Sequence record: PV714129.1 | Source of the DNA: Escherichia phage Mizar | Reading direction: 5' to 3' (one strand) | Length of the DNA: 64,000 bases | In this document: positions 37,433 through 38,227 of the stretch, piece after piece | Numbering within the stretch: position 1 is the first letter of the stretch | How the letters are laid out: the number at the start of each line of letters is the position of its first letter | The notes under the pieces: model-generated | Seen by the model: the letters and a program-made list of their open reading frames with translations, nothing else | Told to the model about the DNA's origin: nothing | Databases searched by the model: none | Position numbers and translations under genes: made by a program

Positions 37433-37630
37433 TTAGCAAGAATAACTAGACGATACCCAGCCTTGAACAGTGATACTATTGTTGGATAATGAGATCGCGT
37501 TCTGGAGATTCAGACCTGCGTTATCTTCAATCCACAATGTAACTTCTTCACGCTCTTCGGTTGCAATCTGGAACAGGTTTTCCAGGGCAGCTACTGCCGT
37601 ACGTACAGCACAATCTAATTCACGAGACAT
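37433..37630 (-). CDS. Small protein ending GWVSSSYSC (paralog A)
   Basis: 65 aa; C-terminal motif shared with the two downstream ORFs. Confidence 0.45.
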   Translation of the reverse strand: MSRELDCAVRTAVAALENLFQIATEEREEVTLWIEDNAGLNLQNAISLSNNSITVQGWVSSSYSC

Positions 37631-37639
37631 ATGATTTCC

Positions 37640-37912
37640 TTAACAAGTGTGAGAAGATGCAACCCAACCACCATCTTCAAGGCTCAGGTTGTAGTCATAT
37701 TGGTAAACGTCAGCCCATTCAGCCTGGCCGTTTTTTGTACAACGTTCAAGATCGGCTTTAAGATGTCCGGGTGAATGATAGGTTCCACCCATGCCATAAG
37801 CTGGATACAAGTTGAATGTTGTGTTTTGTTTATTAGCAATTTCTTTGGCAGCCTCAATAGCTGCATAGATTTTTGCTACAGCTTCAGCCAGTTCGGTTTG
37901 TTCTTTAGACAT
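37640..37912 (-). CDS. Small protein ending GGWVASSHTC (paralog B)
   Basis: 90 aa; starts MSK; GGTYHSPG segment similar to paralog C. Confidence 0.5.
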   Translation of the reverse strand: MSKEQTELAEAVAKIYAAIEAAKEIANKQNTTFNLYPAYGMGGTYHSPGHLKADLERCTKNGQAEWADVYQYDYNLSLEDGGWVASSHTC

Positions 37913-37921
37913 AATGATTCC

Positions 37922-38227
37922 TTAGCACAGCGCAGAAGAGGAAACCCAAGCACCTTCAGTAATAACGTAACCATTACCTTCACGCTTAACATCGCCACCA
38001 TTATTTTCAATTTCATTTTTCATCCACTGGGATACGATTTCACCCTTAGGATAATAAGTACGACCACTACCATAATCACCTACAGAAAATGATACGGCAT
38101 ATTGGTCTGCGATCTTTGTTGCTTCTTCTTCGATACGTTCAGCTTGATTCAGAAGTTTATAAATTGCATCTGAAGCGGATTTGGCATCATTAAACTCTGG
38201 TACTTTAATTTCGATAATCTTACTCAT
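37922..38227 (-). CDS. Small protein ending GAWVSSSALC (paralog C)
   Basis: 101 aa; starts MSK; GRTYYPKG segment. Confidence 0.5.
   Translation of the reverse strand: MSKIIEIKVPEFNDAKSASDAIYKLLNQAERIEEEATKIADQYAVSFSVGDYGSGRTYYPKGEIVSQWMKNEIENNGGDVKREGNGYVITEGAWVSSSALC

Follow-up and report, generated by a model that had tools for sequence, protein, structure and literature searches.

CitX and MdcG, enzymes described as having the nucleotidyltransferase fold, link a nucleotide-derived group by a phosphodiester to a serine of the acidic, ~100-aa proteins CitD and MdcC. MntA polyadenylylates its small partner HepT (PMC7641770). RlaP, a nucleotidyltransferase of the Pol-beta type, extends damaged RNA 3' ends by one or two nucleoside monophosphates (PMC12776372); it is frequent in phage RNA-repair clusters (PMC12776372; PMC7824862), and T4 NrdC.11 belongs to its family (PMC12776372). 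Here we describe a locus in a 64,000-nucleotide stretch of Escherichia phage Mizar (PV714129.1; this whole stretch is called the window), in which three adjacent genes for small proteins with a common C-terminal tail, W-x-S-S-S-x-x-C, lie upstream of a gene for a 318-aa protein composed of the domains DUF7277 and DUF7275 (referred to below as the enzyme). The small proteins belong to a family with a conserved tail that occurs in tandem arrays, was not found in the scanned genomes of bacteria and archaea, and is almost universally linked to DUF7275. The strongest statement supported by these data, as judged from sequence, is that several tail-bearing small proteins and one enzyme make up a conserved two-component phage module. 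From it we infer a physical partnership, the class of the enzyme, modification of the tail and a biological role.

The locus resembles MntA-HepT and GlnD-PII in that one nucleotidyltransferase-like gene adjoins small partner genes with a conserved hydroxyl-bearing motif. It differs from them in several respects: neither sequence nor profile comparison matched the window proteins to MNT, HEPN, GlnD or PII; the candidate acceptor would be a serine in a C-terminal tail, as opposed to an internal tyrosine; and up to six substrate-like genes accompany each enzyme gene, in virulent phages. The likeness to CitX/MdcG and CitD/MdcC is one of description only, as the serine of those proteins is internal and there is no citrate-lyase or malonate-decarboxylase context here.

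The three open reading frames (ORFs) are on the minus strand and encode, in order, a 101-aa acidic protein (37922..38227; isoelectric point (pI) 4.7), a 90-aa acidic protein (37640..37912; pI 5.0) and a divergent 65-aa protein (37433..37630; pI 4.1). As an earlier note on this DNA had reported from the letters, they terminate in GAWVSSSALC, GGWVASSHTC and QGWVSSSYSC, with the tails W-V-S-S-S-A-L-C, W-V-A-S-S-H-T-C and W-V-S-S-S-Y-S-C encoded at 37925..37948, 37643..37666 and 37436..37459, respectively. A search of the six-frame translation of the window with the expression W[VILA][SAT]S[SAT]..C* gave three matches, all at the ends of these ORFs, where 0.002 would be expected by chance from the window's own six-frame residue frequencies. 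The serine codons of the tail vary by copy (TCG/TCT/AGT, TCT/TCT and TCC/TCT/TCT), and because they switch between the TCN and AGY families, selection acts on the peptide and not on the DNA. All three ORFs share one reading frame and are separated by 9-nt spacers (TAAGGAATCATTATG and TAAGGAAATCATATG), with a Shine-Dalgarno-like AAGGA overlapping the stop codons, while the first ATG of the array overlaps the stop codon of a gene for an e.3-like membrane protein (ATGA). Judged by these junctions, the three ORFs are predicted to be translationally coupled to one another, and the e.3-like gene to be coupled to the array as well.

Sequence comparison identifies the 90- and 101-aa proteins as clear paralogs. 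They match each other (BLASTP E=6e-6) and the same PHROG, phrog_899 (E=2.5e-18 and E=1.8e-22, respectively), and their similarity persists when the last 12 residues are removed (shuffle p=0.0025). The MSK start and G-x-TY-x-x-G segment that the note had described as common to the two proteins were confirmed, and their loops read YGSGRTYYP in the 101-aa protein and AYGMGGTYH in the 90-aa protein. The 65-aa protein, which matches phrog_4882 (E=1.7e-36), consists of a helix and a shortened body that lacks the YGxGGTYYP loop. Its resemblance to the others is mostly confined to the 16 C-terminal residues (E=7e-4 in BLASTP; 45% probability in hhalign), with a marginal similarity to the helix of the 90-aa protein (p=0.03), and it holds the same array position in other T4-like genera. 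An 'Ig-like domain' label attached to this protein in UniRef had no support and was dismissed as spurious.

To define the family, a profile built from nine long members was searched against 1.84 billion representatives, clustered at 50% identity, and returned 585 protein clusters at E<=1e-3; the tail statistics that follow rest on the 146 newly found representatives among 150 listed. W-x-[SAP]-S-[ST]-x-x-C was present no more than two residues from the end in 143 of the 146, with the cysteine exactly terminal in 135, and the serine at +3 was invariant in all 143 tail-bearing representatives. The tail family is defined here by W-x-[SAP]-S-[ST]-x(0-3)-C at the C-terminus, with no more than two residues after it, and all three window proteins fall within this definition. 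Members also conserve an amphipathic helix at the N-terminus, '..IADE.G..F', and, in the centre, the loop (A)YGMGGTYYP; in the window, the 90- and 101-aa proteins carry the loop, as (A)YG-x-G-[GR]-T-Y-[YH] after the N-terminal helix, and the 65-aa protein does not. The median pI of the representatives was 4.5, and the N-terminal extensions of longer members revealed no domain. On one 3-kb metagenomic contig with no DUF7275 (L045 2-781), a 175-aa member (P0175) follows an ORF whose YFLGFITADGS resembles the LAGLIDADG motif, possibly a homing endonuclease.

The motif had been described as strictly C-terminal, and this does not hold: in 8 of the 146 representatives one or two residues follow the cysteine, and internal copies are also present. 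Additional W-x-S-S copies, found in about one-third of the members within the acidic stretch preceding the tail, numbered 56 compared with 5.2 +/- 2.2 in shuffled sequences, an enrichment of ~11-fold; the member P0117, for example, ends in ...RWESSSEGWESSSEGWVSSSSQC. By this enrichment the tail behaves as a repeatable short linear motif. A separate subfamily of ~75-85 aa has the motif twice, as an internal F-x-D-W-x-S-S-x-C-Y-G-E-G and a terminal W-x-x-S-S-C without spacer (L050-L067, e.g. L052 2605-2829; L033 2371-2631; L022 4250-4477). It occurs in Dhakavirus, in Klebsiella/Enterobacter and Aeromonas T4-like phages and in Phapecoctavirus, and is absent from the window.

Serine close to a terminal cysteine also recalls ribosomally synthesized and post-translationally modified peptides (RiPPs). 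S-x-x-C or S-x-x-x-C spacing and a terminal cysteine are typical of the cores of lanthipeptides and aminovinyl-cysteine (AviCys) peptides, and the tail shares both features. In such a scheme the enzyme would activate a tail serine for dehydration, and the terminal cysteine would then add to give a thioether ring of the (methyl)lanthionine or AviCys type. The gene layout, with several precursor-like genes ahead of one enzyme gene, is likewise that of RiPP precursor arrays, in which short paralogous genes share a recognition segment and C-terminal serine and cysteine residues. We nevertheless consider RiPP-like maturation very unlikely. Conservation here falls on the C-terminal tail, in contrast to the N-terminal leader of RiPP precursors, the model discussed below predicts folded domains in place of leader-plus-core peptides, and anything from 0 to 3 residues can separate the serine from the cysteine (W-x-S-S-C is one variant), with some members having no cysteine. 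No RiPP domain of the LanB, LanC, LanM, LanKC or LanD type was detected with Pfam among the window neighbours or in related loci.

The note had further proposed a local paralogous expansion. The paralogy stands, but the expansion is not local: an ordered array of orthologous subfamilies, of one to six copies, is conserved over T4-like genera and far beyond, in rV5-like phages, Otagovirus, jumbo phages and Myxococcus phages. The Mosigvirus array is a reduced one, with three copies compared with up to five or six elsewhere, and copy number is lower than in Dhakavirus or in Klebsiella/Enterobacter T4-like phages. The distribution of its members marks the array as old and not as a product of local expansion. 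Relatives of the 101-aa protein were found in 389 phage records by tblastn, a count that is incomplete because the small proteins are too divergent, and relatives of the 90-aa protein with 41-43% identity are encoded on jumbo-phage contigs of 360-370 kb. A scan that covered 185,579 species of bacteria and archaea, at one genome per species, found no relative, a limited negative given the narrow peptide pattern used, and copies labelled E. coli or Shigella lie on phage-sized contigs of ~168 kb. So far, the family appears to be confined to phage sequence.

The note had suggested a search of related genomes for an adjacent modifying enzyme. Such a search proved productive, as the DUF7277+DUF7275 gene is almost always the next conserved gene. 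In the window it occupies 36139-37095 on the same strand, 338 nt downstream of the array. Viewed from the small proteins, DUF7275 follows on the same strand at a distance of 50-1700 nt in every retrieved locus that has a downstream flank, whether from Mosigvirus, Dhakavirus, T4-like phages of Klebsiella/Enterobacter and Aeromonas, a 370-kb jumbo contig or unclassified metagenomic contigs; in the Aeromonas phages, the jumbo contig and the metagenomic contigs the small proteins are just 31-45% identical to those of the window. For the reciprocal view, the 80 best IMG/VR loci for the enzyme (40-98% identity) were scanned for ORFs of <=200 aa ending in the tail. One to six such ORFs were located upstream on the same strand in 76 of the 80 loci, and among 4272 ORFs none was located downstream or on the opposite strand. 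The four misses comprise two loci with variant tails (WVQSSC in one; WQASAQSC, WEESSC and WLYSSESC in the other), one with only 243 nt of upstream sequence, and one true lack.

The pair also survives loss of the surrounding synteny, and the paired genes frequently abut or overlap. By tblastn the enzyme was found in 734 GenBank phage records, and the pair is present in Otagovirus phiPsa315 (four small-gene copies), Phapecoctavirus ASO2A (three copies), Myxococcus phage Mx1, the jumbo phages Ralstonia RsoM2USA and Salmonella PHA46, Stenotrophomonas phage BUCT608, and Acinetobacter phages Henu6 and Kimel. In Henu6 and Kimel the final residue of the tail is S, Y or C, and tails from Acinetobacter T4-like phages read ...WSASSENS, ...WSPSSESY and ...WYNSSESC (L034 1372-1560; L048 998-1616). 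The Cys-less tails retain W-x-x-S-S, and the enzymes beside them have an unchanged KVCTSITSGWF segment. These variants bear on a further explanation, in which the paralogs assemble into homo- or hetero-oligomers whose terminal cysteines share a metal or become disulfide-linked, making the tail an assembly element. The terminal cysteine is the sole cysteine in 87 of the 146 representatives, and the three to five copies in enterobacterial T4-like phages could provide several ligands. This explanation is nonetheless the least probable of those considered here: 19 of the 80 loci have a single small-gene copy, the cysteine is lost in some Acinetobacter copies, and the invariant tryptophan and serine are left unexplained.

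Pfam assigned residues 2-101 of the 318-aa protein (36139..37095, minus strand) to DUF7277 (E=5.7e-27) and residues 120-305 to DUF7275 (E=6.8e-79). For the three small proteins and their neighbours, these two domains were the sole informative matches in Pfam, NCBIfam and PADLOC. A G-S...D-x-D...E pattern in a strand-helix arrangement is the signature of Pol-beta-superfamily nucleotidyltransferases. The N-terminus of the enzyme contains G6-S7...D25-x-D27...E69, a pattern invariant in 10 homologs, with D25 and D27 invariant in 17; it agrees with the Pol-beta catalytic motif hG[GS]...[DE]h[DE]h...h[DE]h, and in the domain two strand-helix units precede further strands. Homologs in two GenBank records are annotated as 'nucleotidyltransferase' by independent annotators. 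Invariant residues of the C-terminal domain are K125, H128, H194-D195, H198, E240-E241 and E248-R249, and among closer homologs a KVCTSITSGWFR segment is also invariant. The most conserved segment of the enzyme, residues 270-281, is K-V-C-T-S-I-T-S-G-W-F-R. Reversed, it contains W-G-S-T-I-S-T-C, with the same Trp-to-Cys spacing of seven as the tail W-V-S-S-S-A-L-C and with Ser or Thr at two of the three tail serine positions; antiparallel pairing of the segment with the tail would place Trp against Trp and Cys against Cys. This mirror relationship was spotted after the fact and may be a coincidence.

Distant DUF7275 homologs, 26-30% identical to the window protein over the full-length alignment, are encoded by Streptomyces phage Wakanda, Gordonia phage Aphelion, Vibrio phage KVP40 and phage DSS3_PM1. 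None of these has a W-x-S-S-S-x-x-C neighbour (L037 3594-3893; L038 3600-4797; L039 2360-2656; L040 4217-4609). All four adjoin, or lie within a few hundred bases of, members of another family of small proteins, characterised by the motif ..GGEGqG..Yw.Vfki...G..RYFrK.GwY.SY.G..yDG...EV.P..KTITVy, which has no Pfam match and also forms tandem paralogs (three in Aphelion). In three of the four, Val or Ile replaces the Cys of the segment at 270-281. The enzyme may thus have two alternative partner families.

A connection to known nucleotidyltransferases comes from one metagenomic lineage, in which a tail-family gene overlaps the end of a gene for RlaP (PF10127) by 4 nt. The lineage consists of two contigs with RlaP proteins that are 71% identical, and its small proteins are of the subtype 'FW[YF]SSSM[SG]C'. 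That a family member is paired with RlaP gives independent support to the nucleotidyltransferase link. RlaP and the enzyme are alike in size (~300-330 aa), in an N-terminal G-S...D-x-D, in a helical C-terminal domain and in a phage RNA-repair neighbourhood, and the tail-family gene directly follows RlaP in the lineage just described. They are nevertheless distinct. The 318-aa protein matched DUF7275 and DUF7277 only and not PF10127, an hhalign comparison of little power with RlaP was null, and the window phage carries both proteins, its own 329-aa RlaP homolog being encoded at 23435-24424 on the minus strand (48.3 bits versus a cutoff of 23). RlaP, moreover, acts on RNA, and a protein partner has not been reported for it. 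Other copies of the module adjoin genes for Rnl1, PNKP, DNA ligase, a metallophosphatase or NADAR, or tRNA genes, and tRNA genes are present in the window.

The pairing with RlaP, an RNA 3'-end nucleotidyltransferase, would also suit a toxin-antitoxin-like arrangement. The enzyme would then be a potentially toxic nucleotidyltransferase acting on tRNA or RNA 3' ends, like MenT, AbiEii or RlaP-type enzymes, and the small acidic proteins would be inhibitors or specificity regulators whose tail plugs the active site. The small genes are positioned directly upstream of the enzyme gene and are often translationally coupled to it, and MntA-HepT provides a precedent for a nucleotidyltransferase with a small protein partner (PMC7641770). 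We regard this arrangement as improbable, since up to six different antitoxins for each enzyme would be unusual and the module resides in virulent phages and was not found in scanned bacterial genomes. Models of the AbiE, MenT and MNT-HEPN systems (NTP_transf_2, DUF1814, HEPN, AbiEi and MenA; Pfam/PADLOC, E<=10) gave no match.

An AlphaFold2 (AF2) model of the 101-aa protein, made from a nine-sequence alignment, had a predicted local distance difference test score (pLDDT) of 90.7 and contained a helix at residues 15-43 followed by five short strands; within the tail, residues 93-96 formed a strand and residues 97-100 a short helix, with a mean pLDDT of 88 over residues 91-100. The predicted fold had no match among solved structures. 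Such a compact, confidently predicted fold that includes the tail could also be that of a stand-alone inhibitor acting early in host takeover or against host defences, for example an acidic nucleic-acid mimic or a sponge for a signalling molecule. The tail would then be structural or ligand-binding, with its tryptophan in the core and the serines and cysteine capping the YGxGGTYYP loop, and the enzyme gene would be merely a co-regulated neighbour in a counter-defence island. The low median pI of the family, a conserved glycine-rich loop with aromatic and Ser/Thr residues that suit a ligand pocket, and the presence of multiple diverged paralogs, which are typical of anti-defence arsenals, are all in keeping with such proteins, as is the location of the array in the T-even hyperplastic region. 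Plain co-regulation, on the other hand, does not readily account for a near-universal, ordered and often overlapping adjacency in otherwise dissimilar phages, the repeated internal W-x-S-S copies suggest a linear motif, and no fold similarity to a known mimic (Ocr, ArdA, Arn) or sponge was seen. On balance we judge the inhibitor explanation unlikely, but less so than the other alternatives.

The window shares 97% identity with T-even phages of the RB69 type (Mosigvirus; e.g. Shigella phage JK45 and Escherichia phage 55), and the array corresponds to the T4 e.2-e.8 region, with the lysozyme gene on one side and the tRNA cluster on the other. Homologs of T4 e.6 (39578-40186), e.5 (38926-39549), e.4 (38562-38987, minus strand) and e.3 (38224-38583, minus strand) are present, the last two being predicted membrane proteins; a 'sulfurtransferase' label on the e.4 homolog in phage JK45 (MK962757; L001 8557-8952) looks spurious, with nothing in Pfam to support it. 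The three small ORFs, an 83-aa ORF and the 318-aa ORF together fill the slot held in T4 solely by the unrelated e.2. The 83-aa ORF (phrog_3723; 37131..37382, minus strand) lies between the array and the enzyme gene and encodes four cysteines, including a C-T-I-C. Its tblastn matches are confined to Mosigvirus, the majority of Dhakavirus loci and a subset of T4-like loci of the Klebsiella/Enterobacter type, and none of the distant loci that retain the small-gene/enzyme pair has it; it is lineage-specific and probably not a core part of the module.

Both the strand and the region of the array are those that bear early-transcribed genes in T4. A sigma-70-like promoter match, TTTACG-17-TATAAT (10/12 positions, a consensus match only), is located at 38287..38315 on the minus strand, ~60 nt 5' of the array, and a second promoter-like site at 37427-37399 precedes the 83-aa ORF; such matches are not above chance in the region (20, compared with 17.9 in shuffles). 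The late-promoter motif TATAAATA is absent near the array, its nearest copy being at 41803. The idea that the small proteins are internal proteins targeted to the capsid, as in T4, was considered and rejected: they have no N-terminus resembling a capsid-targeting sequence, and the linkage to the enzyme would be left unexplained.

With close to an even chance of being correct, the explanation we favour casts the small proteins as partners of the enzyme, most likely as its substrates, that dock on it through the tail. An old phage module would consist of one to six tandem genes for small acidic proteins followed by one gene for a ~300-aa enzyme on the same strand, and each small protein would be built of a helix, a small beta-sheet with the YG-x-GG-TYYP loop, and a tail W-x-S-S-S-x-x-Cys-COOH. 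The invariant tail would serve as the docking site for the enzyme and probably also as the site of modification, while the differences among the bodies would direct each paralog to its own target. A single enzyme gene accompanied by many small genes with a common tail fits an enzyme with several substrates or partners, and the extra internal W-x-S-S copies are as expected of a short linear recognition motif. Because the motif is shared and repeatable and the gene order outlives all other synteny, a direct partnership with docking through the tail is favoured. By analogy with MntA-HepT and similar systems, modification of the invariant serine by the enzyme is the most likely chemistry, in which the Pol-beta-nucleotidyltransferase-like N-terminal domain would transfer a nucleotidyl or phospho group. 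The early strand and region, together with the RNA-repair, tRNA and counter-defence neighbourhoods, make it probable that the module operates at an early stage of infection, in RNA-damage conflicts of host or phage. A more specific version, to which we give tentative credence at best, is that the enzyme nucleotidylylates or otherwise derivatises the tail serine or cysteine of effectors, and that this constitutes an unrecognised early-infection system of large virulent phages; such an enzyme-plus-tagged-effector system would probably serve the arms race over tRNA and RNA damage.

Several observations weigh against this explanation. Some concern the pairing: in Stenotrophomonas phage BUCT608 both small-gene copies are downstream of the enzyme gene, in the window the 83-aa gene and a promoter-like site intervene between array and enzyme gene, and in the T4 e-tRNA region, the site of the module in the window, neither the small genes nor the enzyme gene is present. 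Others concern the tail. AF2 places it inside the fold, so that a purely structural role could be envisaged on the basis of the model, and some copies from Acinetobacter phages have Ser or Tyr where the others end in cysteine. The remainder concern the enzyme, whose nucleotidyltransferase class is suggested by a short motif. Searches of Pfam, NCBIfam, PADLOC and the PDB gave no nucleotidyltransferase match, and in comparisons of the enzyme profile with PDB sequences a first alignment yielded no match and a second only noise. The hhalign comparisons with RlaP and with an AadA sequence were null, with templates of one or two sequences that gave them little power. A single-sequence AF2 model of the enzyme was unusable (pLDDT 39.6), and the region of the third acidic residue is missing in the distant DUF7275 homologs.

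Each sequence by itself has a database entry, as a hypothetical protein and under a PHROG: phrog_899, phrog_4882 and phrog_2141 (the enzyme), which the window proteins match with E=1e-18 to 1e-150, are all listed as 'unknown function', with neither the tail nor the linkage recorded. The note's statement that the function is undescribed is borne out, as the small proteins have no Pfam or NCBIfam match, all records are 'hypothetical' and no paper was found in open-access full text. In the same literature, which falls short of proof, and in annotations, the tail motif, the extent of the family and the DUF7275 linkage were not found, and searches for either family by RB69 ORF names, DUF/PF numbers or PHROG identifiers returned nothing. 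With neither partner having a characterised homolog or a matching solved fold, the module appears new as a system, though in mechanism it may prove to vary a known process, either protein nucleotidylylation or the regulation of nucleotidyltransferases. Its absence from the T4 region examined may account for the module never having been studied.

Members are found in therapy-relevant Mosigvirus and Phapecoctavirus phages and in phage Bas47 (AlbertHofmann) of the BASEL collection, which makes genetic tests practical, and an eight-residue C-terminal tag with a single enzyme offers a simple experimental handle. If the linkage reflects a working partnership, the module would be a widespread two-component system, with 585 clusters of small proteins and an enzyme present in 734 GenBank phage records, distributed over large lytic phages, among them T4-like, rV5-like and jumbo phages. 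Its study could bring to light an undescribed protein modification or a novel form of phage control over an RNA-end-modifying enzyme, and its neighbourhoods, with Rnl1, PNKP, RlaP, NADAR and tRNA genes, point toward a host-phage conflict over tRNA damage.

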